DNA from: Candidatus Magasanikiibacteriota bacterium
GTDB taxonomy: Bacteria > Patescibacteriota > Patescibacteriia > Magasanikbacterales > GWA2-37-8
Reading direction: 5' to 3'
DNA length: 64,000 nucleotides
Assembly: GCA_963802255.1 (NCBI GenBank)
Contig: CAWDHY010000001.1
Coordinates: 107,274-171,273 of the forward strand
Shown here: positions 14,019 to 56,612 of the stretch, in pieces
Position numbering within the stretch: position 1 is the stretch's first letter
How the letters are laid out: the number at the start of each line of letters is the position of its first letter
Position numbers and translations under genes: made by a program
Notes under the pieces: generated by a model
Seen by the model: the letters and a program-made list of their open reading frames with translations, nothing else
What the model was told of the DNA's origin: nothing
Databases searched by the model: none

Positions 14019-14207
14019 ATTGATACCATTATATCAAAATATTCGTTGTTTATAAATATTGACTAATTATTTGTATTTTTGTAATATATCTCCACAATAA
14101 TACTGCCAGAGATGTTATCTGGTAATGCGGGTATCATATATGGCAAAAAGCATATATGACACCCTCGTTCGGAAATGTAAAAACTTTGTTTTTCCATTTC
14201 GCTCGTT

Positions 14208-14279
14208 GCGGGTATCATATAACGGCTATTATCCCAGTTTTCCAAACTGGTGACAGGGGTTCGACTCCCCTTACCCGCT
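14208..14279 (+). tRNA. tRNA-Gly (anticodon TCC)
   Basis: cloverleaf with acceptor GCGGGTA/TACCCGC, anticodon loop UUUCCAA, T-loop TTCGACT; a 14-nt copy of its 5' end (gcgggtatcatata) lies 81 nt upstream at 14127-14140. Confidence 0.85.
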
Positions 14280-14280
14280 C

Positions 14281-14314
14281 AAAAATAATCAGGGCTGAAA
14301 GCCCTGATTATTTT
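14281..14314 (+). terminator. hairpin aatcagggc-tgaa-gccctgatt followed by ATTTTT
   Basis: 9-bp perfect stem plus U-tract directly after the tRNA. Confidence 0.55.
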
Positions 14315-14320
14315 TGAATG

Positions 14321-14486
14321 TAGTGAAGGGAGTCGAACGGGCAGAAGCGAGACGCGAAGTTTTTGCGGAAGCAAAAACAAGTTGGCGAGAGTCGTCGGAC
14401 TGCCAGTGGCAGTCCGACGCTGCCCAGGACAAGGAGACGAGACGGTTGCGGCCGGCGAGGCGACGAGGAACTCCCCTTACCGCTCA
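14321..14486 (+). repeat. family-A tRNA-appended structured element, copy 1 (candidate ncRNA or miniature mobile element)
   Basis: roughly 80-90% identical by eye to the reverse complement of 24536-24698; 5' end gggagtcgaac is the reverse complement of the tRNA-Gly(TCC) T-loop region; 3' end ctccccttaccgctca copies the tRNA 3' end; internal hairpins show compensatory changes between copies; flanked by terminators. Confidence 0.6.
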
Positions 14487-14488
14487 AA

Positions 14489-14517
14489 ACACACAGACGC
14501 CAGACTGTGTGTTTTTA
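14489..14517 (+). terminator. hairpin acacacag-acgccaga-ctgtgtgt followed by TTTTT
   Basis: 8-bp stem plus T-run directly after the element. Confidence 0.55.
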
Positions 14518-14548
14518 TTCGTCGTTTAGTGATATTATATATCATAAT

Positions 14549-17138: not shown

Positions 17139-17360
17139 GCGGGTATGCTCAGGTATAGCCGCGTCGCTCGGAAACAATGAACGAGCTAGCTTATTCATTG
17201 TGTTCCTCACTCGCGGGTATACTCAGGTATATCCGCTCATTCGGAGAAAGTATACGAGTTTGCTCGTCTACTCTGCTCCTCATTTCGCGGGTATACTAAG
17301 GTATACCCACTCATTCGCGGAAAATGTCAAAATAAATTTTGCCACTTTGCCGCTCATTTC
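17139..17360 (+). repeat. three degenerate ~74-nt tandem pseudo-copies of the tRNA-Gly(GCC) 5' region
   Basis: gcgggtat(g/a)ct(c/a)aggtata recurs at 17139, 17213 and 17287 with a 74-nt period, each preceded by ctca(t)ttc as at the real tRNA; each unit begins with a hairpin gggtatac..gtataccc. Confidence 0.6.
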
Positions 17361-17482: not shown

Positions 17483-17555
17483 AGCGGGGTAGAGCAATTG
17501 GCAGCTCGTCGGGCTCATAACCCGAAGGTTCCCGGTTCAAGTCCGGGCCCCGCAA
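17483..17555 (+). tRNA. initiator tRNA-fMet (anticodon CAT) with an A1xA72 mismatch
   Basis: three consecutive G:C pairs 29-31:39-41 in the anticodon stem, loop CUCAUAA, unpaired 1:72, discriminator A; no encoded CCA. Confidence 0.8.
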
Positions 17556-17915
17556 CAAAGTTGCGAAGGGGCAGTAACCACTGCTCTTTTGTATTTGTGC
17601 CGCGCAGGGACGCTTTGCGTCCCGTAGGCGGCTAACCATGTTTTGCGTGAATCGGTTCAAGTCCGGGCCCCGCAACAAAGTTGCGAAGGGGCAGTAACCA
17701 CTGCTCTTTTGTATTTGTGCCGCGCAGGGACGCTTTGCGTCCCGTAGGCGGCTAACCATGTTTTGCGTGAATCGGTTCAAGTCCGGGCCCCGCAACAAAG
17801 TTGCGAAGGGGCAGTAACCACTGCTCTTTTGTATTTGTGCCGCGCAGGGACGCTTTGCGTCCCGTAGGCGGCTAACCATGTTTTGCGTGAATCGGTTCAA
17901 GTCCGGGCCCCGCAA
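17556..17915 (+). repeat. 3 x 120-nt tandem array; each unit is a 94-nt structured spacer plus a 26-28-nt copy of the tRNA-fMet T-loop/acceptor 3' end
   Basis: period 120 (ggttcaa at 17534, 17654, 17774, 17894); units virtually identical; internal hairpins gcagtaaccactgc and gggacgc-ttt-gcgtccc; the track ORF 17469..17918 is a translation of this repeat. Confidence 0.85.
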
Positions 17916-17958
17916 CAACTAAAAACATCTCCGCATAAGCGGAGATGTTTTTAGTTGT
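17911..17958. terminator. bidirectional terminator with a 22-bp perfect inverted repeat (caacaactaaaaacatctccgc / gcggagatgtttttagttgttg)
   Basis: long perfect stem with U-tracts on both strands; closes the tRNA array and the convergent perM-like gene. Confidence 0.6.
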
Positions 17959-24497: not shown

Positions 24498-24535
24498 CAT
24501 AAAAAAATACCCCGAAGAAAGCGGGGATTTTTTTG
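24498..24535. terminator. hairpin ccccgaagaaagcgggg with U-tracts on both strands
   Basis: 5-bp GC stem with 7-nt loop; T-run on + strand, A-run on + strand (= T-run on minus strand). Confidence 0.5.
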
Positions 24536-24698
24536 TGGTCCGGGTGGGAATTACTCGTCGTCTCGCCGACCACAATCGGCTCGACTCCTTGCCCTGGGCA
24601 GCGACGGACTGCCACGGGCAGTCCGTCGACTCTCGCCAGCTCGTTTTTGCTTCCGAAAAAACTTCGCTTCTCGCTTCTGCCCGTTCGATTCCCTCGTC
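24536..24698 (-). repeat. family-A tRNA-appended structured element, copy 2 (downstream of tRNA-Leu-TAA)
   Basis: homologous to 14321-14486; 5' end (minus strand) gggaatcgaac is the reverse complement of the tRNA-Leu(TAA) T-loop region; 3' end attcccacccggaccac at 24536-24552 copies the tRNA 3' 17 nt. Confidence 0.6.
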
Positions 24699-24699
24699 T

Positions 24700-24737
24700 G
24701 ACATTTAAAAATACGGCTCCAACAAAAATTGGAACCG
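24700..24737 (-). terminator. hairpin acggttccaa-ttttt-gttggagccgt followed by ATTTTT (minus strand)
   Basis: 10-bp stem with one mismatch, directly after tRNA-Leu. Confidence 0.5.
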
Positions 24738-24748
24738 TACTATTAAAG

Positions 24749-24830
24749 TGGTCCGGGTGGGAATCGAACCCACACGCCTTGCGGCAAGGGATTTTAAGTC
24801 CCTCGTGTATACCAGTTTCACCACCGGACC
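24749..24830 (-). tRNA. tRNA-Leu (anticodon TAA)
   Basis: cloverleaf with a long variable arm (13 nt), anticodon loop CUUAAAA, T-loop TTCGATT. Confidence 0.85.
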
Positions 24831-31413: not shown

Positions 31414-32400
31414 ATGAAGAATATTTTTAGAATATTAATTGCATCGGTTATTTTCAGTTGTTTGTTTTTGGTTGCGCAGAGCCAAGCGGCTGCTCTTTAT
31501 TGTCACGATGGCGATAACTGCTACGAAGTAAATGAATCAAATTTGGCAGATTGTGCCAATATTAGTGAGACGCCATGTTCGACTAGCAGTTCTTCCGGTG
31601 CGTCAGCACAACCGACAAGTAAAATAATTCCGGCATGTCTTTTGGGGAATAATATAGACGGAAGTTGTGATAACATAAATATTTTTATCACATTTGCCAT
31701 AAATATCGGCATATATATTTTTGGCTTTATCGGGGCATTGGCTCTTCTGATGTTTGTTTATGGCGGTTTTATTTTGATAATGTCACAGGGCAACCAGGAA
31801 AAAGTTAAAAAAGGGACGGGCGCAATCACTGCGGCGGTTATAGGGTTAGTAATTGCATTTAGCGCTTACGCGCTGATTACATTCCTGAGTAATACTATTG
31901 GTGTAAAATCAGGGAAGAGCATAAATTTTGTGGAGACAGTATTTGCACAATCTTCAGAAGAAGGTAATGGCTGTATCATTGATGGAAAATGTATAATTTT
32001 GTCTGATCCGGGTGAATTTTGTGGCGATCCATGCAATTACGATTTAGAATTATTAACCCCGGTGGAATTAAATGAAATGCAGGACGTGCTCGAAGGCGGG
32101 CAGACAAAGCCGGCACAAAAGGGTATCTCTTCACTGGTAGCGGGCGCAAAAAAATTAAATCCAATGCAAATCAGCTCTCCGTATAGTCTGCTTGCGGGTG
32201 GAGTAAATATTTTGCTTGCGTTCATGGGTTCTATTGCATTATTGTTGTATATTTATGCCGGTTTTATCTGGATGTCTGCGGGAGGATCGGCAGACAAGAT
32301 TACTAAGGCCAAAAAAATTCTCATCTGGACAACTTTCGGGATTCTCGCGATGACCGGTAGTTACATGGTTGTTAATACTATACTCAAGCAAATAGGCTAA
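31414..32400 (+). CDS. two-TM pilin-like protein (TrbC/VirB2-like), double-domain paralog 1
   Basis: signal peptide; two copies of the core (LLMFVYGGFILIMSQGNQEKVKKG..IGLVIAFSAYALITF and LLYIYAGFIWMSAGGSADKITKAKKIL..GILAMTGSYMVVNTIL) separated by a Cys-rich segment. Confidence 0.6.
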   Translation: MKNIFRILIASVIFSCLFLVAQSQAAALYCHDGDNCYEVNESNLADCANISETPCSTSSSSGASAQPTSKIIPACLLGNNIDGSCDNINIFITFAINIGIYIFGFIGALALLMFVYGGFILIMSQGNQEKVKKGTGAITAAVIGLVIAFSAYALITFLSNTIGVKSGKSINFVETVFAQSSEEGNGCIIDGKCIILSDPGEFCGDPCNYDLELLTPVELNEMQDVLEGGQTKPAQKGISSLVAGAKKLNPMQISSPYSLLAGGVNILLAFMGSIALLLYIYAGFIWMSAGGSADKITKAKKILIWTTFGILAMTGSYMVVNTILKQIG

Positions 32401-32406
32401 ACAAAT

Positions 32407-32805
32407 ATGAGACTACTTAAACAGATACTAATTTTTACACTACTGTTGAATGGCGTTATGATACTTGCACCGGTCGTATGTTTTTCAAGTGAAGTAAAAA
32501 CAGTAGATCTTGAAAACCCGATACAGTTAAAAGATAGTAAGGGTAAAGTGCTGAAAGATGAAGCGATTACCCCGGCTGTAATAATAGGTACGGTAATAAA
32601 GTCGTTTTTAGGGGTTGTCGGCGGCTTATCATTGGTAATGATGGTTTATGGAGGTTTTCAGTGGCTCACCTCTGCCGGGAATGACGAAAAGGTTAAGCGC
32701 GGCACACAAACGATGATGTGGTCAATAATCGGATTAGTGGTGGTTTTAGCCAGTTATTTACTGGTCAATACTGTTCTTAGATTTTTGGCTGGTGCAAAGT
32801 CTTGA
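32407..32805 (+). CDS. two-TM pilin-like protein, paralog 2
   Basis: core LVMMVYGGFQWLTSAGNDEKVKRGTQTM..IGLVVVLASYLLVNTVL. Confidence 0.6.
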   Translation: MRLLKQILIFTLLLNGVMILAPVVCFSSEVKTVDLENPIQLKDSKGKVLKDEAITPAVIIGTVIKSFLGVVGGLSLVMMVYGGFQWLTSAGNDEKVKRGTQTMMWSIIGLVVVLASYLLVNTVLRFLAGAKS

Positions 32806-32896
32806 TGATTGCGTAAAATATCATTTTAAGATAAAATATTTTTAAGTAATGATTATCCGGCACATAAGTGCCAATTCCTTGAAAGGGGGTGAAATT

Positions 32897-33310
32897 ATGA
32901 AAAAATTAGTAGTATTTGCAGCTTCATTTGCCTTGTTATTGGGTGGTTTTATGAGTTTCAATGTAGCTCCGGCATATGCCAGCGAAGGCGTTCTCGGTAC
33001 AGATGATTTAGGCATTGGATATGCAGCTGATACAGGTCTCGGTAGTGAAGATGTTCGTGCCACAGTTGCACGTATCATCCGAGTGGCCATGGGCCTGCTA
33101 GGTATCGTCGCTGTTGTTATTATTTTGATCGGTGGTTTTAAATGGATGACTGCCGGCGGTAATGAAGAACAGGTCGGAGAAGCTAAAAAATGGATATTCT
33201 CCGGTGTGATTGGTTTGGCTATTATTTTGTCAGCATATGCGTTAGCCAGCTTTATTATTTCTCAATTAGTCACGGCAACAACCGGGACGGGTTCCGGTAC
33301 GGGACTATAA
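32897..33310 (+). CDS. two-TM pilin-like protein, paralog 3
   Basis: SD GGGGGTG upstream of ATG 32897; core IILIGGFKWMTAGGNEEQVGEAKKWI..IGLAIILSAYALASFII. Confidence 0.6.
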   Translation: MKKLVVFAASFALLLGGFMSFNVAPAYASEGVLGTDDLGIGYAADTGLGSEDVRATVARIIRVAMGLLGIVAVVIILIGGFKWMTAGGNEEQVGEAKKWIFSGVIGLAIILSAYALASFIISQLVTATTGTGSGTGL

Positions 33311-33398
33311 GTTTTTTCTGTCAGGGGGTTCGCGCGCGCAACCCCCTGACAGAAATTCCGGTTTGGTTTTTTTAAAAAGAATCCAGACCAGAATAAAT

Positions 33399-33818
33399 AT
33401 GGCCATTAAAAGGCTTTTTCTAGTGTTGATATTAACGGGGGCATTTTTTTTGCCTGTGTTTGTTGGCGCTCAAGGAGAAATGAATGATAAATATGGTCTT
33501 GATAAAACAGCGAATAAGACTAAATTACCAACTCTTGGTATAAGCAAACAAACACCGGAAACGCTGGCTAATACTATTGTAACGACAGTTTTAATGTTCG
33601 TCGGAACGATTTTTTTCTTGTTGGTTTTGTATGCAGGATTATCCTGGATGACGGCCGGCGGATCTTCTGAAAAAGTTAATAAAGCTAAAATGATGCTGGA
33701 AACAGCGGTAATTGGCTTGTTAATTGTTGCTGCCTCATATGCTATTTCAATATTTGTATTTGAAAGGCTGACAACCCCGCCGGAAGTAACTGCTCCGGCA
33801 ACCTCAACAGCGCAATAA
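33399..33818 (+). CDS. two-TM pilin-like protein, paralog 4
   Basis: core LLVLYAGLSWMTAGGSSEKVNKAKMML..IGLLIVAASYAISIFVF. Confidence 0.55.
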   Translation: MAIKRLFLVLILTGAFFLPVFVGAQGEMNDKYGLDKTANKTKLPTLGISKQTPETLANTIVTTVLMFVGTIFFLLVLYAGLSWMTAGGSSEKVNKAKMMLETAVIGLLIVAASYAISIFVFERLTTPPEVTAPATSTAQ

Positions 33819-33821
33819 TGT

Positions 33822-34811: not shown

Positions 34812-34817
34812 TACTTT

Positions 34818-35855: not shown

Positions 35856-36425
35856 ATGTTTAAAAAAAGATTACTGTTTATCGCAATGCTCGGTCTTTTT
35901 ATTTTTCCGATAATTGCTTATTGTGCTCCGAATATAGGGCTTGGACAGAGTGGAATGGCGCAAAATATTGCCGGTCAAGCTGGCTATGACACGAGTGGAG
36001 ATGAATACGCTTTATCGCGGACCATTGGCGGAATAATACGTGGTGTTTTATCTTTAGTTGGTGTAATTTTTTTGGTTCTAACTATTTACGCTGGCCTTCT
36101 TTGGATGACGGCATCGGGAGCGGAAGATAAAATCTCTAAAGCAAAAGATATTTTAAAATCGTCGGTTATCGGTTTAGCCATTGTTGCTTCGGCGTATGGT
36201 ATAACCGCATTGGTTATGAGTTTTGTCATCGGCGCATCGGCTCCAAGCACGGATACCGGCCAATACGGGCCAGAATCAACAATGGGCTGTTGTTATTGGG
36301 AGGCAGAAAAGAAGTGCGCCCAAACTACATCGGCGGCGACATGCGGACAAAAATGGGAAGATGCGAGGTGGTATGCCGGAGAATCATGCACTCCATATTT
36401 TGATTGTGAACATATTGAATATTAA
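35856..36425 (+). CDS. two-TM pilin-like protein, paralog 8, with a Cys-rich tail
   Basis: ATG at 35856; core LTIYAGLLWMTASGAEDKISKAKDIL..IGLAIVASAYGITALVM; tail GCCYWEAEKKC..CGQKWEDARWYAGESCTPYFDCEH. Confidence 0.6.
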   Translation: MFKKRLLFIAMLGLFIFPIIAYCAPNIGLGQSGMAQNIAGQAGYDTSGDEYALSRTIGGIIRGVLSLVGVIFLVLTIYAGLLWMTASGAEDKISKAKDILKSSVIGLAIVASAYGITALVMSFVIGASAPSTDTGQYGPESTMGCCYWEAEKKCAQTTSAATCGQKWEDARWYAGESCTPYFDCEHIEY

Positions 36426-36429
36426 TTTT

Positions 36430-36861
36430 ATGAATAAATTAAAAACAATCCTTATTTGCGGGATGTTATTATTTGGAGGTTTTTTATTTGCCAATCAAGC
36501 GACGGCAAGCCTTTCGGAAATGGAGGGTCAGTTATCGGCGGCCGCAGAGGAAGGCGCCGGTTATAGTTCACCGCAAGACCCGCGCGTTACCATAGCGACA
36601 ATTATCCGCGCCGCTCTTGGGGTGATTGGCATTATTTTTTTAGTACTGACTCTATATGCCGGCGGATTATGGATGATGTCAGGTGGCAATGAAGAACAAA
36701 TTACAAAGGCAAAAAATACCTTAAAAGCATCGATAATAGGTTTAATTATTGTAATTAGCGCTTATTCTATTACAATTTTTATTTCTTATCTGGCTATTGG
36801 CGGAAATCGCGATGCGATAAAAGTTAATCCGCCGTCAAGCCAAAATCAGCCGTTTAATTAA
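36430..36861 (+). CDS. two-TM pilin-like protein, paralog 9
   Basis: ATG at 36430; core LTLYAGGLWMMSGGNEEQITKAKNTL..IGLIIVISAYSITIFI. Confidence 0.6.
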   Translation: MNKLKTILICGMLLFGGFLFANQATASLSEMEGQLSAAAEEGAGYSSPQDPRVTIATIIRAALGVIGIIFLVLTLYAGGLWMMSGGNEEQITKAKNTLKASIIGLIIVISAYSITIFISYLAIGGNRDAIKVNPPSSQNQPFN

Positions 36862-37943
36862 TCGTTAAACGCCAGCCGCAATATTGACTCAGCAGCGTTC
36901 ATTGGAAGAATAGGAGAAGAAAATTTTAATGAACCGTTAAGGGTAAGGTCAATCAAATCAGCAATTTTATTATGGTCGGCTACCAGCCGGCCATAATTAT
37001 TTTTTTCAATAAAGCGGATGTTAGCCTTTTCTTGTCCAGGTATAGGGCTTATCAGCAATAGTGGTTTGCGCAAATGCATGCATTCGGTAATTGTTAATCC
37101 TCCCGGTTTAGTGATTACCAAATCCGCCACAGTCATAAGTTCATCAATGCGTTCAGTAAAATCAATTAAACGATAATTGATATTTTTTGGAGCTATAAGA
37201 CGGTTTAATTTTCCATAAAGGCGCCGGTTATTTTTACCGGAAATTACAATTAAATTAACATTTTTTTTATTTTTAAATATTTTTTTTACCAATGATGCGG
37301 TGTCGGCAAGTCCTGTGCCGCCAGACATAACCAGGATCGTCGGGTATTCGTTTATTAATCCAAAATCCTTTATCGTTTGATTGATATTTTTTTCTTCAAA
37401 AAATTGCGGATGTATGGGAATACCCGTAGCGAAAGCTTGGCGTCCAAGTTTTAAAATTTCTTCCGCAATGCTATTTTCCGGAGTAAAAAAATATCTGATT
37501 TTAGGATCAAGCACAATCCTGTTTAGCTCATAATCAGTAATTAGCATGTCGAGAGGGATGGTCTTGGCAAAAGATTTCAAAAATGGAGAAGCTAAAAAAT
37601 GCGTGCAAATAATCCTGTCCGGACTAAATTGTTTGACAAAGCGATGCAATTTTTTGGTATTTATCTGAAAAATTGAAGAAAAATAATTCAAAAATTTTGC
37701 CGCCATGGCTGAATCCGAACCGTCATAAAGCAAGCCATAAACATCCGGAAGATGCTTCGCTAAAAAATGATAGCTAGAAGCTGTTTTTTTGACTATACCG
37801 TCAGAATAGTCGATTAAATCAATATGACTGGCTTCAATATCCGGGTGGAATTTTACGCAAGTTAAACGCAAAGCTTCAGCAGCGCGTTTGTGTCCGGCGC
37901 CGGCTGAACAGGAAACGAAGAGAATTTTTTTTGGAGTGGCCAT
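36858..37943 (-). CDS. glycosyltransferase of the MGDG-synthase/UgtP (GT28-like) family
   Basis: N-terminus KKILFVSCSAGAGHKRAAEAL matches the MGDG_synth domain; GT-B C-terminal half. Confidence 0.55.
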   Translation of the reverse strand: MATPKKILFVSCSAGAGHKRAAEALRLTCVKFHPDIEASHIDLIDYSDGIVKKTASSYHFLAKHLPDVYGLLYDGSDSAMAAKFLNYFSSIFQINTKKLHRFVKQFSPDRIICTHFLASPFLKSFAKTIPLDMLITDYELNRIVLDPKIRYFFTPENSIAEEILKLGRQAFATGIPIHPQFFEEKNINQTIKDFGLINEYPTILVMSGGTGLADTASLVKKIFKNKKNVNLIVISGKNNRRLYGKLNRLIAPKNINYRLIDFTERIDELMTVADLVITKPGGLTITECMHLRKPLLLISPIPGQEKANIRFIEKNNYGRLVADHNKIADLIDLTLNGSLKFSSPILPMNAAESILRLAFND

Positions 37944-38084
37944 AATGTATAAATTACATTACCAAAAAAGATGTCTCTTGGCAATTTGCTTTGTTAAACC
38001 CGTTTGTCGGTGCGCAGATCATAGTTCATTTCCCGGTGAAATAAAAAAACAAGCCCAGGCATAAAGCCGGAACTTATTTTTTAG

Positions 38085-38156
38085 GGCGACTACTGGGAAT
38101 TGAACCCAGGTATCTGGTGCCACAAACCGGTGTTCTACCATTGAACTATAGCCGCC
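38085..38156 (-). tRNA. tRNA-His (anticodon GTG) with encoded G-1
   Basis: extra 5' G opposite the discriminator C; anticodon loop UUGUGGC; T-loop TTCAATT. Confidence 0.85.
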
Positions 38157-38255
38157 ATGTAATCAAAAAAGGTGAAATGATTATATCAAACTTGTTATCT
38201 TAAAGCAATAATCATTGTGCGGCGCTCAGCGTCTCAATTACAACGCTTAGCGTTG

Positions 38256-38327
38256 TGACCCCGCTAGGAATCGAACCTAGGTCCACAGCTTAGAAGGCTG
38301 TTGTTCTATCCATTGAACTACGGGGCC
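38256..38327 (-). tRNA. tRNA-Arg (anticodon TCT)
   Basis: cloverleaf; anticodon loop CUUCUAA; T-loop TTCGATT. Confidence 0.85.
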
Positions 38328-38411
38328 GATTAAGAAAACATAGCCATTTTAGCATATTTTGCCCGAAAAATCAAGATGAGGTATAATATATACTATTAAT
38401 TGATATTTTAT

Positions 38412-38888
38412 ATGTATAGAATAGTACTACTGATAGTGGCGATAGCCAGTTTGCTATTTATCGGTGTTCAAGTGCAGGCGTCTGGTTTTGGTTTAAAGGA
38501 TACGGCGACAAAAGCCGGTTATGAGACGAGTGGAGAAGCGGCATCTGTCACCGGCCGAATTCAAACTATCGTTTCAGCAATTCTTGGTTTTGTAGCCTTA
38601 TTATTTTTTGGTCTTACTTTGTATGGTGGTTTAACTTGGCTAACCGCGAGAGGCAAGGAAGACAAAATTACTGAAGCTAAAGGCATACTTGAGGCCGCAG
38701 CCATTGGTTTGGTAATAATTGCCGCATCATACGCAATAGCAAATTTCATATTAGGACGGATATCACAATCTGCTGTCGGCTGTTGTAGCTATACTACAGA
38801 AGCAGGTATGGAATTTACAAATATTTCAAAAGAAGAGTGCGACACTCACAGCGGTGATTGGTCTGCCGGAGACTGCGGTGCCATATAG
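38412..38888 (+). CDS. two-TM pilin-like protein, outlying paralog 10, with a Cys-rich tail
   Basis: TATAAT box at 38382; ATG at 38412 (the track TTG is at 38400); core LTLYGGLTWLTARGKEDKITEAKGIL..IGLVIIAASYAIANFIL; tail GCCSYTTEAGMEFTNISKEECDTHSGDWSAGDCGAI. Confidence 0.55.
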   Translation: MYRIVLLIVAIASLLFIGVQVQASGFGLKDTATKAGYETSGEAASVTGRIQTIVSAILGFVALLFFGLTLYGGLTWLTARGKEDKITEAKGILEAAAIGLVIIAASYAIANFILGRISQSAVGCCSYTTEAGMEFTNISKEECDTHSGDWSAGDCGAI

Positions 38889-40019: not shown

Positions 40020-42248
40020 ATGAATGTAAAAAATTGGTCCATGGAATGGGGTGGCCGCACTTTATCTGTGGAGACTGGAAAGCTTGCTTTATTAACACAA
40101 GCTTCTTGTACAGTACGCTATGGTGATACTGTTATTTTAGCAACTGCAGCTATGAGTAAGACGACCCGTGATGGGATAGATTTTTTTCCTCTGATGGTAA
40201 ATTTTGAGGAAAAACTTTATGCTGCAGGAAGAATTAAGGGTAGTCGTTTCATCAAACGTGAGGGACGTCCAAGTGAAGAGGCAACTTTATCCGGACGGAT
40301 GGTTGATCGGGCTATCAGACCTTTATTTGATAGTGATATGCGTAATGAAGTGCAGGTTATTTTAACTGCTCTATCATGGGATGGTGAAAATGATGCTCAA
40401 GTACCGGCTTTTGTCGCCACATCAATTGCATTAGCTATATCAGAAATTCCATGGAATGGCCCAATTTTTGGTGCTCGAGTCGGCAAAGTTGATGGTAATT
40501 TAATCATTAATCCAACCTTTTCTGAACGAAAAGCAGGTACATTAGATGTAGTAGTGGCTGGTACACCGGATAAGGTGGTAATGGTAGAGGCTGAGATGAA
40601 AGAGGTCCCAGAAGATGAGGTAATTTCTGCTATGGAATTTGGTGCCAAGGAATCAGCTAAAGTTTTGGATTTTATCAAAAAAATTCAGGCCGAAATTGGC
40701 CAACCAAAGATAAATTTACACGATAATCTGCCTGAAGATGAAACTAAATTACGTGAGACAGAAAAGCAAGTTAGAGATTTCATCGCGTCTCATGTAGATG
40801 ATTGGATTTTTAATACCCCTAAGGTTAGCCGGAAAGAACGGGTGATTATGGTGGAAAGATTTGAAGAAGCTATTAAGGAAAAATTAGTAGCCGAAGAGAC
40901 TGATGAAAAAATAATGAATATTATTCTCGGACGAGTCAAGATTTATGTGGAAGAATTTATTACCAAAAGAATTTTGGATAAAGATCAACGTCTTGATGGT
41001 AGAAAATTGAATGAAATTCGTGAATTATACATTGAGATCGGTCTTTTACCACGAACTCATGGTACCGGCTTGTTTCAACGTGGTGATACTCAGGTGCTTT
41101 CAGTAGTTACTCTTGGTTCACCTGGTGATGTGCAGACTTTAGATACAATGGAAACGGAAGGAAATAAGCGTTACATGCACCACTACAATGATACTCCGGC
41201 CACTTATGGTGAAACCGGACCTATTCGGGGCCTGGGGAATCGGGCTATCGGACATGGTGCCTTAGCCGAAAGAGCATTAATACCGGTATTACCGGCTGAA
41301 GCAGATTTTCCTTATGCTATTCGTGTCGTTTCTGAAGTTTTTGGTTCCAATGGTTCAAGTTCAATGGCTTCAACTTGTGGTTCATCCCTTGCTTTAATGG
41401 ATGCCGGTGTGCCAATTAAAAAACCAGTCGCCGGTATTGCTATGGGTTTAGCATCTGACAAATCAGGTAATTGGAAAATTTTGACCGACTTACAGGATAT
41501 TGAAGATGGTCCGGGTGGTATGGACTTCAAGATTACTGGTACAGTTGATGGTATTACTGCTATGCAGATGGATACTAAGACTGATGGTTTGAGCTGGGAG
41601 ATTGTCAATCAAACTTTTAAACAGTCTCGCGAAGCCAGATTAAAAATTCTTGAGGCGATGAAAAAAGTTATTGCTGAACCAAAAAAAGAAATGTCGCCGT
41701 ATGCTCCACGCATTGTGACGGTTGTGATTGACCCGGAAAAAATTCGCGATGTCGTTGGTCAGGGCGGTAAAGTAATCAACAAGATTATAGAAGAAACTGG
41801 CGTTCAAATAGATATTGAACAGGATGGTCGGGTGATTATTACTTCAAACAATGCTGAAGGATTACAGAAAGCTGTGAAAATTGTGGAGAACATTACTCAC
41901 GAAGTCGTAGCCGGTGAAGTGTATGATGGTACTGTAGTTCGAATTGAAGATTTTGGTGCTTTTGTGAACATCTTGCCAGGTAAAGACGGGTTAGTTCATG
42001 TGACTGATATGGCTTGGGGATACACTAGTAAACCTAGTGATGTGATAAATATGGGTGATATTGTAAAAGTTGTGGTAAAAGAAATTGACAGTATGGGTCG
42101 GGTTAATCTGAGTATGAAAGCTCTGTTACCAAAACCTGAAGGTTATGTTGAACGACCGCCAATGGAACGTAGAGGTGGATTCAGTGGCGGACGAGGCGGA
42201 GGCGGGCGCGACCGAAAAAGTGGCGGAGGTTTTAGAGGCGGAAGATAA
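40020..42248 (+). CDS. pnp: polynucleotide phosphorylase
   Basis: two RNase PH domains, KH and S1 domains, Gly/Arg-rich C-terminal tail. Confidence 0.95.
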   Translation: MNVKNWSMEWGGRTLSVETGKLALLTQASCTVRYGDTVILATAAMSKTTRDGIDFFPLMVNFEEKLYAAGRIKGSRFIKREGRPSEEATLSGRMVDRAIRPLFDSDMRNEVQVILTALSWDGENDAQVPAFVATSIALAISEIPWNGPIFGARVGKVDGNLIINPTFSERKAGTLDVVVAGTPDKVVMVEAEMKEVPEDEVISAMEFGAKESAKVLDFIKKIQAEIGQPKINLHDNLPEDETKLRETEKQVRDFIASHVDDWIFNTPKVSRKERVIMVERFEEAIKEKLVAEETDEKIMNIILGRVKIYVEEFITKRILDKDQRLDGRKLNEIRELYIEIGLLPRTHGTGLFQRGDTQVLSVVTLGSPGDVQTLDTMETEGNKRYMHHYNDTPATYGETGPIRGLGNRAIGHGALAERALIPVLPAEADFPYAIRVVSEVFGSNGSSSMASTCGSSLALMDAGVPIKKPVAGIAMGLASDKSGNWKILTDLQDIEDGPGGMDFKITGTVDGITAMQMDTKTDGLSWEIVNQTFKQSREARLKILEAMKKVIAEPKKEMSPYAPRIVTVVIDPEKIRDVVGQGGKVINKIIEETGVQIDIEQDGRVIITSNNAEGLQKAVKIVENITHEVVAGEVYDGTVVRIEDFGAFVNILPGKDGLVHVTDMAWGYTSKPSDVINMGDIVKVVVKEIDSMGRVNLSMKALLPKPEGYVERPPMERRGGFSGGRGGGGRDRKSGGGFRGGR

Positions 42249-42322: not shown

Positions 42323-42406
42323 GCCGGGGTGGTGAAATTGGTAGACACGCAGGCCTTAGGAGCCTGTTCCCGCAAGGGATTGGAGGTTCGAGTCCTCTCT
42401 CCGGCA
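42323..42406 (+). tRNA. tRNA-Leu (anticodon TAG)
   Basis: long variable arm; anticodon loop CUUAGGA; T-loop TTCGAGT; acceptor GCCGGGG/CTCCGGC. Confidence 0.85.
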
Positions 42407-42436
42407 CAAAACGAGCCAATAGTTTGGCTCGTTTTT
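42407..42436 (+). terminator. hairpin aacgagcc-aatagtt-tggctcgtt followed by TTTT
   Basis: 9-bp stem plus U-tract right after the tRNA. Confidence 0.55.
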
Positions 42437-42556
42437 AGGACGAGAACGCCGGAGCGATGTTTGACGAACTTGCAGGTGAGGCAAACCGCGAGGCGGTGAC
42501 TAGCCCGAGTAGGCGGAAGCCAACGAGAGGCGAGGTCGAGTCCTCTCCCCGGCACC
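42437..42556 (+). repeat. family-B tRNA-appended structured element, copy 1 (downstream of tRNA-Leu-TAG)
   Basis: shares cores acgccggagcgatgt and accgcgaggcggtg(a/g)ctag with the element at 56351-56506 (minus strand); 3' end ggtcgagtcctctccccggcacca at 42534-42556 copies the tRNA 3' end; 5' end aggac-gagaac resembles an inverted T-arm. Confidence 0.55.
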
Positions 42557-42577
42557 AGTAGCAACTAAATATTTTAT

Positions 42578-42710: not shown

Positions 42711-43268
42711 ATGCAAAAAGCATTATTTTTATTCATATTCGCCATGTTTGTCGGCTGTGGGGCATCTGACCGTTTTGAAGTGATTGATGGTGGTGGTAGT
42801 GATTCTGACTCGGATAACGACACCGACACAGACACCGACACAGACACCGACACAGACACAGACACCGACACAGACACCGACACAGACACCGACACCGAGA
42901 CGGAGACTGAGGCTGATGCTGGCCCTCAGACGTGTGAAACGGCTTCTGACTGCGATGAAGACGAGGTCTGTGGTTATGAAACGCAAACTTGCTATCTGCA
43001 GCCAGAGCCCGGTGCGGACCAGTATTGGTACTGCTGGGATGATGGTCCGGACAGCGAAGGCCCTAGCTGTGACTCCTTTGATTTCGGCGGTTGCGATTAT
43101 TGGTCGCCAGAGGAGTGGCATTGGACCGATGTCCATCCCGCTTGCGGCTCTAACTATCCGCCGCCAGCTTGCCCGACGCATTATCCGACCACTCCAGCCT
43201 GTTGCCTCAAAAACAACGGTGAGGATGAGGACTGCATCGGCCAGGCCTTTTTTCCCCCTATTGTATAG
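42711..43268 (+). CDS. acidic Cys-rich lipoprotein with a (DT)12-(ET)2 repeat; GC-rich and compositionally atypical
   Basis: SD AAGGAG 6 nt upstream of ATG 42711 (the track start is 42675); lipobox FVGC|G; 18 Cys; local GC well above the window background. Confidence 0.55.
   Translation: MQKALFLFIFAMFVGCGASDRFEVIDGGGSDSDSDNDTDTDTDTDTDTDTDTDTDTDTDTDTETETEADAGPQTCETASDCDEDEVCGYETQTCYLQPEPGADQYWYCWDDGPDSEGPSCDSFDFGGCDYWSPEEWHWTDVHPACGSNYPPPACPTHYPTTPACCLKNNGEDEDCIGQAFFPPIV
42819..42902 (+). repeat. hexanucleotide simple-sequence repeat (GACACN)n encoding (DT)12
   Basis: gacaccgacaca... tract inside the lipoprotein gene. Confidence 0.9.
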
Positions 43269-43413: not shown

Positions 43414-43769
43414 GTGCCTACGATTAAAACCCCTTTGGGGACCACGTCCAATCTCATGGATACAAATCGTATCCGCCTGGACCTCTGGGTAAGACTTTTA
43501 CTCAATTGTAAAAGACAGGTAATGTTAACCATTATCAAACAACTCAAATCTTACTCATAGTATCCAAGCGGTTCAAACTCACAAAAATTGAGTCGCTTGT
43601 CGCGGCTCATTTTTTTATCTCACACTCCGGCCAATATATTGGCAGGAGCAATGAGACAAGAAATGGATTGCACGTTGACAATTTAAATAGTTCAACAAAA
43701 AAAGCAGATTTATATCTGCTGGGTAGAACGCAACAAAACACTGTTTGGTGTTTTCGTTGTGTGCAATTT

Positions 43770-46870
<3,101 letters not shown>

Positions 46871-46957: not shown

Positions 46958-47064
46958 TCAGGTGCCTTAAGCGACAGGGTCACACCCGATCCCATCCCGA
47001 ACTCGGCAGTTAAGCCTGTCAGCGCCGATGATAGCGTGACCCGCAAAAGTAGGCCGGCGCCTGA
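46958..47064 (+). rRNA. rrf: 5S ribosomal RNA
   Basis: helix I tcaggtgcc/ggcgcctga; internal cccatcccgaactcggcagttaagc; flanked by a long processing stem gaactgagtacagagttcagg/cctgaaccttgtactcagtt. Confidence 0.8.
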
Positions 47065-47188
47065 ACCTTGTACTCAGTTTTTTTGTACCTGTACATAAGA
47101 ATAAATGACGCCGGTCGCTTCTAAGATGAATGCTTCATTTTTTAGCAAGAAAATGATAAAATAGACATATAAATTAACCCGCAAATAT

Positions 47189-55460: not shown

Positions 55461-56048
55461 TTAATCTTTTTTCCGCGTTAAGCGGCGGCGGAACAAAACC
55501 AGAAAAGTGATTATGCCACAGCCGATAAATAAATATATCGGATAGGTGGCAATAGCGAAATTCCATTTTTCAATGGCAAAAAGATTTAGCGTATTGCCAA
55601 GGAAAAAAAGAATCCAAGCGATGCGGTCTTCATCTTCCGGCTTCTTGTATGTCTTCCGTATGGTGGGTAAAGCGCCGGCGCAGTCTATTGTTATATTAAT
55701 AAACAGCGCGAGTAAGGGGGAATCAAATATAAACCAGAGCGCACCGCTCATTGCGGCGCAGCCAATGCATGCCCGGTCAAACCGCGTCCAGCCGCCTTCG
55801 CCAAATTTTAATGCCAGAAGAGCAGTAATAAAAGGCCCGATAACATAGCTAATAGCCACCCAAATCGTGTCTTTAGCGCCCGAAGCACTGTAGCTTGAAG
55901 CCAACATCAACCCTACAACGGTCCAAATCCACCAGGAAGCTCGGTTCGGTTTGGTTTTACCGCGCAAAATGGAAATGATGTAGGGGATAAAGGCGGCAAG
56001 TGATATAACACCAGCCACCATTCCAAATGTGGCTGTGTCAAATGTCAT
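55461..56048 (-). CDS. polytopic membrane protein, putative small-molecule transporter (7 TM)
   Basis: SD AAAGGAGAG upstream of ATG 56048; hydrophobic profile of a 7-TM transporter; the track ORF extends to 56099. Confidence 0.35.
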   Translation of the reverse strand: MTFDTATFGMVAGVISLAAFIPYIISILRGKTKPNRASWWIWTVVGLMLASSYSASGAKDTIWVAISYVIGPFITALLALKFGEGGWTRFDRACIGCAAMSGALWFIFDSPLLALFINITIDCAGALPTIRKTYKKPEDEDRIAWILFFLGNTLNLFAIEKWNFAIATYPIYLFIGCGIITFLVLFRRRLTRKKD

Positions 56049-56176
56049 CTTACTCTCCTTTTTTTGTTTAGATTTTAAAGAACGGATTAATCTAATCATA
56101 AAGCGCTGGTCTTGTCAATTATTCGGTCTGCAATCTTGATTATTTATCAATTTTGTGATATACTGTTTTGTGCTGC

Positions 56177-56248
56177 GCCCCTATAGTTTAATGGATAGAA
56201 TATCAGGCTTCGAACCTGAAGATGGGAGTTCAATCCTCTCTGGGGGCA
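56177..56248 (+). tRNA. tRNA-Arg (anticodon TCG)
   Basis: cloverleaf; anticodon loop CUUCGAA; T-loop TTCAATC. Confidence 0.8.
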
Positions 56249-56249
56249 C

Positions 56250-56281
56250 AAAAAAATAAGGGTCATGCCTTATTTTTTTTG
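56250..56281. terminator. bidirectional terminator (aaaaaataagg-gtcatg-ccttatttttt)
   Basis: palindromic hairpin with A-tracts and T-tracts. Confidence 0.5.
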
Positions 56282-56350
56282 CATCTTTAATTATTTGGTC
56301 GCTTCGCCCCAACAAAACAAAAAAGCCCCCAAAGGGGTTCTTTTGTTTTT

Positions 56351-56506
56351 GTGGGTCGCCAGGGATTCGGCTTCAACTAAAATTTTCTTCCAAAAATTTT
56401 GTCTAGCCACCGCCTCGCGGTCGCGCTCGCTCTTTTGCATCGCGCGACATCGCTCCGGCGTCCGAATCCCTGTCGCGACCAAAACTGTTTGGTCGCTTCG
56501 CCCAAA
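56351..56506 (-). repeat. family-B tRNA-appended structured element, copy 2 (downstream of tRNA-Lys-CTT)
   Basis: minus-strand 3' end ccgaatccctggcgacccac (56351-56370) copies the tRNA-Lys 3' 20 nt exactly; 5' end cagggattcggac is an inverted copy of the Lys T-arm; family-B core motifs; the box tttggtcgcttcgccc plus a terminator module is duplicated at 56294-56345 and 56488-56537. Confidence 0.55.
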
Positions 56507-56539
56507 CAAAAAAATCCCTGACGGGACTTTTTTGTTTTG

Positions 56540-56612
56540 TGGGTCGCCAGGGATTCGGACCCTGGACCTTGTCCTTAAGAGGGACCTGCTCTACCAACTG
56601 AGCTAGCGACCC
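56540..56612 (-). tRNA. tRNA-Lys (anticodon CTT)
   Basis: cloverleaf; anticodon loop CUCUUAA; T-loop TCCGAAT; acceptor GGGTCGC/GCGACCC. Confidence 0.85.

Follow-up and report, generated by a model that had tools for sequence, protein, structure and literature searches.

Copies of tRNA 3' ends behind five of 11 tRNA genes

Short non-coding elements that follow tRNA genes in a 64,000-nt stretch of the genome of Candidatus Magasanikiibacteriota, an ultra-small bacterium of the Patescibacteria (the whole stretch analysed, here called the window), are probably tRNA-trailer RNAs of the type represented by RtT in E. coli, located in the 3' trailer or spacer on the tRNA strand, with a putative function as tRNA mimics or decoys and a putative recombinational route of spread. 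ARAGORN detected 11 tRNAs in the window, and a script comparison of each tRNA with its flanks led to a downstream copy of the tRNA's own 3' end for five of them. At four of these loci (tRNA-Gly(TCC), Leu(TAA), Lys(CTT) and Leu(TAG)) an inverted T-arm copy was additionally found at the opposite edge of the insert, and no 3'-end or T-arm copies were detected in the flanks of tRNA-Ala, Gly(GCC), His and the three tRNA-Arg genes. By our own estimate, an exact 12-nt copy within 400 nt is expected by chance about 3e-4 times per tRNA. The preliminary description of this DNA, which had reported the five copies, the four inverted T-arms and the empty flanks of tRNA-Ala, His and Arg, was thereby confirmed, with Gly(GCC) as a further gene lacking copies.

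The inserts comprise 100-170 nt. Behind the tRNA come, in this order, a hairpin, the tRNA 3' part as reverse complement, a conserved core, the 3' part in direct orientation and a second hairpin, the copied part reaching from T-loop position 56 to C74. The flanking hairpins escape a simple terminator scanner owing to the mutual pairing of their A and T runs, and they are described here from the sequence itself. A strong hairpin with a T-run separates tRNA and element in all four window elements of families A and B (see below) and at most loci elsewhere, and the gap between tRNA and element at those loci offers no room for a promoter, so that transcription of the element there would need read-through. 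Searches of the window with Rfam at gathering score gave tRNAs, 23S and 5S rRNA only, and a search at E<=10 with the elements of tRNA-Gly(TCC) (family A) and tRNA-Leu(TAG) (family B) gave only noise, the best match being Twister-P5 (E=1.7).

Families A and C in the window

Family A is found behind tRNA-Gly(TCC) (14208..14280, forward strand; ARAGORN) and tRNA-Leu(TAA) (24748..24830, reverse strand; ARAGORN). On the forward strand, tRNA-Gly(TCC) is followed by hairpin 1 (14281..14316, read from the sequence), a terminator-like structure of A-run, GC hairpin and T-run in the bidirectional form, whose pairing A and T runs left it unflagged by the scanner. The 5' arm (14323..14338) is the reverse complement of the T-loop and the T-stem 3' strand of tRNA-Gly, including an exact 11-mer at 14328-14338 (inverted copy GGGAGTCGAAC), and leads into a core of three hairpins (14339..14469). 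The 3' arm (14470..14486; ACTCCCCTTACC-GCTCA) copies the tRNA 3' end, starting 190 nt downstream, with 12 nt exact or 17 nt with one deletion, and is followed by a second terminator-like hairpin (14487..14517, read from the sequence). The same order was observed on the reverse strand behind tRNA-Leu(TAA), with a terminator-like hairpin 1 (24706..24744, read from the sequence), a 5' arm (24683..24702, from script and sequence) as inverted tRNA 3' part that is exact over 11 nt (GGGAATCGAAC at 24693-24683) and a weaker complement further out, a core (24552..24682), a 17-nt copy of the tRNA 3' end at +197 as 3' arm (24535..24551) and a terminator-like hairpin 2 (24501..24534, read from the sequence). 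The Gly and Leu(TAA) copies share 89% identity over 144 nt, with compensatory changes present. A scan of GTDB genomes with the family A pattern gave two matches, in an Acidobacteriaceae MAG and an actinobacterial MAG, which were rejected as chance matches in coding DNA.

The initiator-type tRNA-Met (17483..17556, forward strand; ARAGORN) is followed by three identical 120-nt units designated family C (17557..17916, forward strand), forming a tandem repeat of 3.2 copies with 100% identity. Each unit starts with GTTGCG, the complement of the tRNA 3' end, and closes with a minihelix of TTGCG, an intact T-arm and then CCCCGCAAC, so that the tRNA-Met 3' end is copied three times over 24 exact nt (+97, +217 and +337). 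A terminator-like hairpin (17921..17954, forward strand; read from the sequence) stands at the end of the array.

A side observation that goes beyond the preliminary description is a leader hairpin before both tRNA-Gly genes, each derived from a copy of the tRNA 5' end. Upstream of tRNA-Gly(TCC), the hairpin (14127..14164, forward strand) is formed by a 14-nt direct copy of tRNA positions 1-14 at -81 (GCGGGTATCATATA) and its complement, and comparable acceptor-stem hairpins are present upstream of tRNA-Gly in the related loci L005, L003 and L006. The second one, from the tRNA-Gly(GCC) 5' end, lies in the leader of the Gly-Met operon (17287..17308, forward strand) and is kept in L003-L007.

Family B in the window

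Behind tRNA-Leu(TAG) (42323..42407, forward strand; ARAGORN), a hairpin termed H0 (CGAGCCAATAGTTTGGCTCG; 42408..42436) lies between an A-run and a T-run and matches in type the H0 of family B units outside the window. It is followed on the same strand by the 5' arm AGGACGAGAAC (42437..42447), a 'GAGAA' variant of the inverted T-arm that matches in 10 of 11 positions, by the core with helices P2-P5 and a three-way junction (42448..42535; 94.3 bits with our covariance model R1) and by the 3' arm (42536..42557). This copy of the tRNA 3' end, 12 nt exact (20 of 21) at +129, extends to ACCA, the tRNA-Leu(TAG) gene itself being without CCA.

The second unit follows tRNA-Lys(CTT) (56539..56612, reverse strand; ARAGORN) and is likewise on the reverse strand, beginning with a terminator-like hairpin 1 (56503..56538, read from the sequence) and H0 (GCGACCAAACAGTTTTGGTCGC; 56475..56496). 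The 3' arm of this H0, GGTCGC, equals the tRNA-Lys acceptor 5' strand and could alternatively pair with the copy; its position before the inverted T-arm had not been part of the preliminary description. The 5' arm (CAGGGATTCGGA; 56462..56473, from the flank script) belongs to a 13-nt inverted copy of T-loop and T-stem (CAGGGATTCGGAC), and then come the core (56371..56461; 95.3 bits with R1), a 20-nt copy of the tRNA-Lys 3' end at +169 as 3' arm (56351..56370) and a terminator-like hairpin 2 (56313..56350, read from the sequence). A repeat of the unit start (GGGGCGAAGCGACCAAA; 56294..56312, read from the sequence) represents a truncated further unit. Both B cores have the motifs ACGCCGGAGCGATGT and ACCGCGAGGCGGTGNCTAG in common, each present at those two window sites only. 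Together with the similarity of the two family A copies, this substantiates the earlier claim that the inserts fall into conserved families.

Family B behind tRNAs of 17 isotypes

The core pattern of family B matched on at least 120 metagenome contigs, with family B present on at least 100 metagenome contigs of Patescibacteria. The preliminary description had named absence of its families outside this window as evidence against its proposal; family B was found on more than 100 outside contigs, and A-like relatives occur in L005, L006, L003 and L111. In this sample the elements are restricted to chromosomal DNA of Patescibacteria. A full-text literature search for the core sequences and related descriptions gave no paper on the motif.

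Ninety distinct family B elements lie 24-275 nt downstream of a tRNA on the same strand. These tRNAs represent 17 isotypes and 34 anticodons, and the arms of the elements always match the neighbouring tRNA. The copy starts exactly at tRNA position 56 in 39 of 70 elements, and its median exact length is 19 nt. Wherever the tRNA gene is without CCA, the copies normally are as well; CCA on a copy next to a CCA-less gene was seen in eight of 55 cases, about twice our own chance estimate. The direct repeat, 12 to 93 nt long across the loci, frequently continues into trailer and terminator and passes the tRNA end by at least 10 nt in 15 and by at least 25 nt in seven of 70 elements. From the missing CCA and the continuation into the trailer it follows that the source of the copies was the gene or the primary transcript and not the mature tRNA.

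Some B copies lie between the tRNAs of operons, as in L041 (tRNA-Arg, 32 nt, B, 21 nt, tRNA-Lys, B) and L092 (tRNA-Val, B, tRNA-Pro, B, tRNA-Ala, a B variant, B), and must therefore be transcribed there. The core motifs are conserved on contigs of 34-60% GC. A complement of the acceptor stem just 5' of H0 (at least 6 of 7 nt) was observed in 20 of 64 elements compared to about six in non-cognate pairings, and a full acceptor stem is possible in only about a third of the B units; the arms of a further family, G, form a continuous helix of acceptor and T-stem. The 5' arm usually complements the copy perfectly instead of reproducing the 5' strands of the tRNA itself. Among the few informative cases, the G3·U70 pair of tRNA-Ala becomes A-U in the element of L121 and the 1·72 mismatch of the initiator tRNA-Met is paired in that of L091, with the G·U pairs of tRNA-Arg retained in L022. 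The complementarity of the 5' arm and the changed pairs in L121 and L091 may argue against a faithful mimicry for aminoacylation.

Structure and covariation of the core

RNAalifold analysis of the family B core led to a three-way-junction RNA of 29 pairs, 20 of which show compensatory changes. Paired cells amounted to 94.3% compared to 77.1% in shuffles and 34-50% in slid controls, and 374 double-change cells were counted compared to 118 in shuffles. In P3-P5 about 40 G·U stand against nine A·C combinations, with one G·U pair being invariant, and this excess points to the tRNA-sense strand. The corresponding counts of 55 and 19 for the closing helix are indicative only, as the script mishandled the 'GAGAA' variant. 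The core types differ, with a three-way junction in B, three hairpins in A and G and an intact T-arm in C, and model R1 matches B only, with no score on A, C, G or RtT. As A, B, C, G and RtT are not detectably homologous, their shared design could be convergent or the by-product of a process at the DNA level. A kinship with 5S rRNA, considered for the three-way junction, the GA-rich loops and the GAACGAAGUGA linker, was rejected, since the 5S model gave no match at E<=10 and no similarity to the window's own 5S was seen.

Comparison with RtT of E. coli

The closest known analogue, absent from the preliminary description, is RtT (RF00391; rttR), the 178-bp repeats distal to tyrT/tyrV. With the Rfam model, four copies were detected in E. 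coli (133-138 bits), where RtT RNA is a known processed transcript. In the Rfam consensus, GGGGAAGGAU...AUCCUUCCCC form the closing part and CACCACCA comes after them; the annotated RttR RNA has its end at that CCA. RtT and the window elements have the same design: both lie behind a tRNA gene, in its spacer or 3' trailer and on its strand, an inverted T-stem/T-loop segment opens the unit and pairs with the copy as closing helix, and the unit ends in a copy of the tRNA 3' end that is single-stranded past this helix. Furthermore, E. coli RtT uses the 'GAGAA' variant (GGGGAAGGAUGAGAA) as many B elements do, is tandemly repeated like the Met array of the window and family B in L048 and L049, and shares a purine-rich core with the present elements. 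To our knowledge, RtT is known only from the enterobacterial tyrT operon.

Differences concern the end of the RNA, which in RtT is a tRNA-like CCA and in the present copies is without CCA where the genes lack it, and the associated tRNA, which is tRNA-Tyr at the examined E. coli locus but Gly, Leu, Lys and Met in the window and any of 17 isotypes elsewhere. Unlike RtT, the elements described here have several core families and arms tailored to each tRNA, and they belong to Patescibacteria. RF00391 itself did not match the window at gathering score, nor the Gly(TCC) family A and Leu(TAG) family B elements at E<=10. Because the tyrT/tyrV repeats share the architecture, the elements appear, judged by their sequences, to be an RtT-like superfamily with tRNA-tailored arms.

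An acceptor/T-stem-like helix with a tRNA-type 3' end is also known from the tRNA-like domain of tmRNA, Y RNA/YrlA, viral tRNA-like structures and mascRNA, and by analogy the tRNA-type end of the present elements is likely to recruit tRNA-processing enzymes. Those mimics copy the tRNA shape generically, whereas here the sequence of the neighbouring tRNA is copied, and families A and B have an extension of the helix plus the core in place of the T-loop.

Spread and alternative explanations

Some form of intragenomic spread is indicated by sequence comparison, since the two cores of L041 differ at two positions yet have unrelated, tRNA-matched arms, and since occupancy differs between close relatives. 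Thus, tRNA-Met is followed by the C array in the window, by a B element in L003 and by nothing in L006, and the site upstream of a Mg-ATPase gene carries a conserved element with tRNA-Gly arms in the window, L005 and L006 and is empty in L003. Tandem arrays of B units were seen in L048 and L049; in the window, A and B elements are single units. As stated in the preliminary description, no integrase, reverse transcriptase or transposase was found among the 60 ORFs of the window. It had offered two readings, and the one as a family of tRNA-end-mimicking small RNAs is supported by the covariation of the B core on the tRNA strand, the position in tRNA operons and the RtT precedent. The other one, miniature integrase-dependent or retro-type elements, is not supported, judged by the lack of mobility genes, by zero matches of family B in IMG/VR, a plasmid collection and a phage collection, by the origin of the copies from gene or primary transcript and by the reported absence of group II introns from Patescibacteria (PMC13011429).

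Integrases with the T-arm as attB usually leave a direct repeat from T-loop to tRNA 3' end, and classical att scars, or miniature elements that depend on a T-loop-targeting tyrosine integrase acting in trans, would explain this form of the repeat and the copy start at position 56 in most cases. Nevertheless, this explanation is largely refuted and highly improbable, as one 90-nt core stands behind 17 isotypes and 34 anticodons with different repeats, for which a single integrase specificity cannot account; moreover, unlike attL/attR, the inserts of 100-170 nt have an inverted arm, a structured, covarying core common to different tRNAs and tandem arrays, and neither an integrase in the window nor a match in the viral, phage and plasmid collections was found. 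Neurospora Mauriceville/Varkud retroplasmids are the model for cDNA primed or templated by tRNA 3' ends. Such cDNA, integrated by homologous recombination, would fit the order of conserved core and tRNA 3' part, an antisense arm resembling a primer-binding site and the CCA on eight of 55 copies despite a CCA-less gene, but we consider it very unlikely: most copies are without CCA and continue into the genomic trailer or terminator, indicating an origin from DNA or primary transcript, the inverted arm spans T-loop and T-stem, often without the 3' terminus, and the window has no reverse transcriptase, with group II introns reportedly absent from Patescibacteria as cited above. Decayed tandem duplicates of tRNA genes could account for segments resembling the acceptor and T-stem 5' strands, arranged as in a tRNA but with a hairpin where the D and anticodon arms would be. 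They are disfavoured and hardly probable, however, as conservation of linker, H0 and core extends across elements of different isotypes, the 5' segments are complementary to the copy and do not reproduce the tRNA's own G·U or mismatched pairs, the complement of the T-loop 3' half stands in place of the 5' half, and no residual similarity to D-arm or anticodon arm was seen. Group I introns, frequent in Patescibacteria tRNAs, were rejected as well, as those reported interrupt the anticodon loop (PMC13011429) and the present elements lie outside intact tRNAs. Guide RNAs directed against tRNA genes (IS110 bridge, TnpB/IscB omega, TIGR-Tas or CAST homing) would likewise combine a conserved scaffold with segments that vary and match the target, and TIGR-Tas systems are present in CPR bacteria (PMC12045711); cis-regulatory leaders would agree with the Gly-armed element just upstream of the Mg-ATPase gene. 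Both are scarcely credible, since no effector gene (Nop-domain Tas, DEDD recombinase, TnpB/IscB) was found in the window or the annotated related loci, both arms cover one tRNA segment and pair mutually, the units have 110-170 nt and not 36 nt, and downstream genes vary or are convergent, with a T-run hairpin intervening.

More serious, although still unlikely, are selfish or neutral DNA palindromes without RNA function, arising by template switching at the terminator hairpin and the palindromic T-loop (TTCGAA). Switching would yield the order tRNA 3' part, terminator, inverted copy, and direct copy with terminator, the cores being passengers homogenised by gene conversion. Accordingly placed features are a single long palindrome of tRNA 3' part, terminator and 5' arm at several loci (e.g. 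L103), centred on the terminator loop, a direct repeat that often takes in trailer and terminator, a 5' arm that is a perfect complement and not a copy of the tRNA 5' strand, arm/core boundaries at the T-loop, one arrangement common to several unrelated cores and the turnover of occupancy among close relatives. Quasipalindromic template-switch products and REP/REPIN are likewise hairpin-forming intergenic repeats next to terminators with arms extended outward; here, in contrast to REP/REPIN, the arms derive from the local tRNA and not from a family consensus, no RAYT-type transposase is present and the core shows RNA covariation. The traits of MITEs or IS elements (family-wide terminal inverted repeats and a fixed short target duplication) were not found, the arms being locus-specific and matching the local tRNA. 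Against palindromes devoid of RNA function, many compensatory changes preserve the B helices and the G·U excess is strand-specific, which indicates selection on a single-stranded tRNA-sense molecule; in addition, core motifs are conserved across contigs of 34-60% GC, elements between operon tRNAs are necessarily transcribed and the genomes are strongly streamlined. As an account of origin, such template switching is compatible with tRNA-trailer RNAs; the denial of an RNA function is not.

Proposed pathway and implications

For the tRNA-trailer RNAs we propose that the element would be co-transcribed with its tRNA, partly via read-through of the intervening hairpin. One strand of the predicted closing helix consists of T-loop position 56, the T-stem 3' strand, the acceptor 3' strand, the discriminator and C74, extended by CCA in those cases where it is encoded in the gene, with its complement as the other strand and the conserved structured core as cap. 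This tRNA-like end might be matured by RNase Z or exonucleases and the CCA-adding enzyme, with a possible contribution of RNase P where an acceptor stem forms, releasing a stable RNA of about 110-170 nt that would display the acceptor/T-stem end of the cognate tRNA as mimic or decoy. Local multiplication may result from unequal recombination of a tRNA 3' end with its copy, and the step to new tRNAs may use the universally conserved T-loop as the site of recombination or of template switching during replication; the boundaries between arm and core are at T-loop positions 53/54 and 56.

The covariation-backed structures now available for this class of tRNA-end copies, alignment A1 and model R1 of which can seed a new RNA family, open the way to work on processing by RNase P, RNase Z and the CCA-adding enzyme and on binding by aminoacyl-tRNA synthetases and stringent-response factors. 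For annotation, downstream copies of tRNA 3' ends should not always be taken as integrase scars. In these compact genomes the elements fill an appreciable share of the intergenic space, which argues for a benefit or an efficient spread.

The tyrT-distal repeats of E. coli and their RtT RNA have been without an accepted function since their first description. According to a 2024 preprint, the mode of action of RtT is still unknown (10.1101/2024.07.17.603846). The same design behind tRNAs of 17 amino-acid specificities in the genome-reduced Patescibacteria speaks for a general class and not a curiosity of one operon. More tentatively, and with considerable doubt on our side, Patescibacteria may possess a large undescribed class of tRNA-addressed RNAs that act in trans as mimics, decoys or antisense switches and spread via the T-loop without a transposase, RtT being the sole relative noticed so far. 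Each of them would be a conserved structured scaffold with arms adapted to the acceptor/T-stem 3' strand of its tRNA. If so, their targets would be the cognate tRNA or the enzymes that read its acceptor end, and the class would provide a comparative framework for RtT, an orphan RNA for 40 years.

tRNA genes followed by copies of their own 3' ends

ARAGORN called 11 tRNA genes in the window, which were confirmed by Rfam, and each of them was compared by script with its own flanks. A direct copy of the tRNA's own 3' end was located downstream of five of the 11, namely tRNA-Gly(TCC) at +190 (12 nt exact; 17 nt with one deletion), tRNA-Leu(TAA) at +197 (17 nt), tRNA-Leu(TAG) at +129 (12 nt exact; 20/21), tRNA-Lys(CTT) at +169 (20 nt) and tRNA-Met, where a 24-nt copy occurs three times inside a 120-nt tandem repeat of 3.2 perfect copies. 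We estimate that, to an order of magnitude, 1e-4 such copies per tRNA would arise by chance. An inverted copy of T-loop and T-stem at the opposite edge of the insert was detected for four of these five tRNAs (GGGAGTCGAAC, GGGAATCGAAC, CAGGGATTCGGAC and AGGACGAGAAC). Neither a 3'-end copy nor an inverted arm was found in the window flanks of tRNA-Ala, tRNA-Gly(GCC), tRNA-His and the three tRNA-Arg genes. The two family A elements (behind tRNA-Gly(TCC) and tRNA-Leu(TAA)) are 89% identical across 144 nt, and the two family B cores (behind tRNA-Leu(TAG) and tRNA-Lys(CTT)) have two long motifs in common that are absent from the rest of the window; the tRNA-Met array is referred to as family C. All this agrees with the preliminary description, which had reported five copy-bearing tRNAs, inverted T-arms in four cases, none of these copies at the Ala, His and Arg genes, and at least two conserved insert families. 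Of the 11 tRNA genes, only tRNA-Ala(GGC) encodes the full CCA; the other ten have the discriminator and a single C (C74), after which the A- or T-rich trailer begins.

Read on the tRNA strand, the tRNA is followed by a GC hairpin between an A-run and a T-run, a 5' arm, the core, a 3' arm and a second hairpin with a T-run. The 5' arm is the reverse complement of the 3' half of the T-loop and the 3' strand of the T-stem, and the 3' arm repeats the tRNA from the T-loop through the discriminator and C74. As the arms pair with each other in predicted folds, the core would be closed by a helix with tRNA sequence as its 3' strand. The Lys element additionally has the acceptor 5' strand GGTCGC, 5' of the 5' arm. 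The family C unit starts with the complement of the preceding 3' end and ends as a minihelix of an intact T-arm and a short acceptor-like stem. Both tRNA-Gly leaders (window 14127-14207 and 17201-17360) contain at least one hairpin made of the tRNA 5' end and its complement, a 5'-side counterpart of the downstream elements. Such hairpins, which often terminate in CCGCTCA, the tRNA 3' end, were also observed at the related loci L005 (260-415; GCGGGTATATCAAGATATACCCGCTCA, an acceptor-stem 'microhelix'), L003 (9020-9110) and L006 (3730-3860).

Gene content of the window

The window proteins are housekeeping genes of a Patescibacteria (CPR) bacterium, and the best named relatives of its P-type ATPase are from Magasanikbacteria. 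Pfam analysis of 60 ORFs led to type IV pilus genes, pilin-like paralogues, RuvB, PNPase, RNase III, gyrase and others. At least 10 paralogous small T4SS_pilin (PF18895) genes form a run (31414-38888), in which a glycosyltransferase gene and the tRNA-His and tRNA-Arg genes are interspersed. The PNPase gene (40020-42248) ends 75 nt 5' of tRNA-Leu(TAG) and its B element, and the RNase III gene (56626-57390) directly adjoins the tRNA-Lys gene with its B element. The adjacency is probably coincidence, although structured RNA ends are substrates of both enzymes. Directly 3' of the Leu(TAG) element, an ORF starting at about 42712 contains 13.5 copies of the hexanucleotide CGACAC (42818-42898). Rfam detected a 23S-5S rRNA pair (43760-46861 and 46958-47065) and no 16S gene in the 64 kb. 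As the 23S match spans 3102 nt compared to 2925 model positions, an insertion of about 180 nt is probable. To the eye, a 0.7-kb stretch (about 58640-59360) is strongly enriched in GC relative to the genome (about 40% GC), and it looks horizontally acquired; it contains a 140-aa ORF (58703-59125) with a Cys-rich N-terminus, a Pro/Lys-rich tail and no Pfam match, and a terminator-like hairpin follows at about 59345-59370.

Family B in other Patescibacteria

When metagenomes were scanned with a pattern of two blocks from the B core, at least 120 contigs matched. About 14 of the matched contigs listed were chance matches in GC-rich coding DNA; most other matches lacking a nearby tRNA were true elements that lay at the end of a contig, formed part of a tandem array or followed a sequence that ARAGORN does not call as a tRNA. 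Among the matches listed, 90 distinct B elements had a same-strand tRNA 24-275 nt upstream, covering 17 isotypes and 34 anticodons. Wherever the case was clear, the core was followed by an exact copy of the 3' end of this tRNA (median 19 nt), starting at T-loop position 56 in 39 of 70 elements, and the sequence before the core ended in ...NNTCGAA (or ...GAGAA, ...TTGAA), the complement of its T-loop and T-stem. The copy includes CCA wherever the tRNA gene encodes it and usually lacks it where the gene lacks it too; on related contigs, CCA was present in 8 of 55 copies despite a CCA-less adjacent tRNA gene, about twice our chance estimate. Named proteins on the B contigs were from Yanofskybacteria, Parcubacteria/Minisyncoccota, Magasanikbacteria and the 'Patescibacteria group', and IMG/VR, a plasmid collection and a phage collection gave no family B match. 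The elements are restricted, in this sample, to Patescibacteria chromosomes. A confinement of families A and B to the window, considered in the preliminary description, does not hold: family B occurs on at least 100 other contigs, and A-like relatives are present at L003, L005, L006 and L111.

The consensus structure from an alignment of 70 distinct B elements has 29 pairs, and compensatory double changes occur in 20 of these. P1 is the helix of the two arms, and P2, which includes a G·U pair, is invariant because the search pattern demanded it. The remaining helices are P3, a hairpin P4 of variable sequence and a second arm P5, in which the closing pairs are GCC/GGC in some elements and CCC/GGG, GCU/AGC or others elsewhere. 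Standard pairs made up 94.3% of cells compared to 77.1% in shuffles, double-change cells numbered 374 compared to 118, and sliding the partners by 1-3 columns as a control gave 34-50% standard pairs. In P3-P5, G·U exceeded A·C (about 40 vs 9), the signature of a single-stranded, tRNA-sense molecule. Family B is therefore a structured RNA on the tRNA strand.

Some B copies are located between tRNAs with no terminator-like hairpin intervening, as at L041 (tRNA-Arg, 32 nt, B, 21 nt, tRNA-Lys) and in the L092 cluster (Val-B, Pro-B, Ala with a B variant and another B). These must be transcribed in polycistronic tRNA precursors, so that gene order indicates transcription of the elements at least in operon contexts. 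In all four A and B elements of the window, as at most loci, a strong T-run hairpin precedes the element and no promoter fits between, and expression there would depend on read-through.

A covariance model from the B alignment matched B elements only; A, C, G (an A-like core in relatives) and E. coli RtT were not found by it. The fetched loci, a sample in which B is over-represented, contain 185 tRNAs. Of these, 81 had a 3'-end copy of at least 12 nt within 400 nt, 66 of them with the exact B motif. The remaining 15 comprised the window's own three A and C elements and about three neighbouring tRNA genes with similar 3' ends; the others were B units that had diverged, or different cores flanked by the same arms. 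Relatives of the window A elements with the three-hairpin layout but a different sequence were G (L005, L006), F (L003) and one in L111.

Possible mimicry of the tRNA end

Many B units open with a conserved linker GAACGAAGUGAG that directly adjoins the preceding 3' end; then come a complement of the 3' strand of the acceptor, the conserved hairpin H0 and the T-arm complement. A complement to at least 6 of 7 acceptor nucleotides just 5' of H0 was found in 20 of 64 elements compared to about 6 with non-cognate tRNAs. In G elements the 5' arm is a continuous acceptor and T-stem strand, e.g. GGCGGTAGGGGG against CCCCTTACCCGC. So the RNA would display a helix with the acceptor and T-stem sequence of the cognate tRNA, plus its 3' end. 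Where the tRNA has a G·U pair or mismatch, the 5' arm is usually the perfect complement of the copy and not the 5' strand found in the tRNA: the element at L121 has A-U in place of Ala G3·U70, and an initiator 1·72 mismatch is paired in that at L091, with L022 as an exception. This disfavours an origin as decayed tRNA duplicates, and it also weakens the case for a faithful mimicry of tRNA identity.

The preliminary description had proposed either miniature integrase-dependent or retro-type elements or a family of tRNA-end-mimicking small RNAs. Its statement that integrase, reverse transcriptase and transposase are missing was borne out by Pfam on the 60 window ORFs, which detected none of these and no RNA-guided effector, and the integrase and retro-type readings are unsupported. 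The reading as a mimicking RNA is supported by the covariation of family B on the tRNA strand, by its position in tRNA operons and by the E. coli RtT RNA, a known processed transcript of the same design, and it is generalised.

Turnover and spread of the elements

As the earlier suggested comparison of occupied and empty loci revealed, occupancy varies between the window organism and close relatives with a 72-78% identical ATPase. The tRNA-Met gene of the window carries the C array behind it, that of L003 a B element whose arms match tRNA-Met, and that of L006 nothing; behind tRNA-Gly(TCC), the window has A, L003 has F and L005 has nothing. A tRNA-Gly-armed element directly 5' of the Mg-type P-type ATPase gene was found in the window (14323-14486), L005 (4860-4990) and L006 (950-1084), and the site is empty in L003 (6291-6443). 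In L005 the tRNA is 4.4 kb from this element; its 3' end and the distant copy flank a 4.1-kb block (DUF5320, DUF134, ParA-like, thioredoxin, YibE_F) that the window lacks between its tRNA-Gly(TCC) and ATPase genes. The two B cores behind tRNA-Arg and tRNA-Lys of L041 differ at 2 positions, and their arms are wholly different, each matching its tRNA. In 15 of 70 elements the direct repeat reaches at least 10 nt past the tRNA end into trailer and terminator, and in 7 of the 70 by at least 25 nt. Tandem arrays occur, including the Met array. Together, these observations point to local amplification by unequal recombination and to cores exchanged or copied between tRNA loci. Some loci, e.g. L103, contain one long palindrome of tRNA 3' part, terminator and 5' arm, centred on the terminator loop. 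As the boundaries lie at the conserved, partly palindromic T-loop, we infer that both arms come to match a new tRNA via recombination or replication template switching there.

Comparison with RtT of E. coli

The design itself is already known, since RtT of E. coli has the same layout of arms and core. E. coli K-12 tyrT-tyrV contains four RF00391 copies, one between the tRNA-Tyr genes and three after tyrV, each with an inverted T-arm GGGGAAGGAUGAGAA, a purine-rich core and a tRNA-Tyr 3'-end copy AUCCUUCCCCCACCACCA. The inverted T-arm is the 'GAGAA' variant seen in many B elements, the Rfam consensus structure is closed by precisely the helix between this arm and the 3'-end copy, and the annotated RttR RNA terminates at CCA. 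Nevertheless, the window elements fail the RF00391 model and are RtT-like in working but outside that family. To our knowledge, the RtT design has been an orphan of one enterobacterial operon. A literature search turned up no description of the Patescibacteria elements. The tRNA introns reported from Patescibacteria belong to group I and are located in the anticodon loop (PMC13011429), and the mode of action of RtT is still called unknown (10.1101/2024.07.17.603846).

The elements described here are RtT-like structured RNAs encoded on the tRNA strand, whose arms match the adjacent tRNA; what is new is the existence of several RtT-like core families with arms programmed for each tRNA. They may amplify by recombination between repeats and spread through the T-loop. 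tRNA-maturation enzymes would release a stable RNA displaying the cognate acceptor/T-stem end, which may act as a mimic or decoy of the cognate tRNA end.
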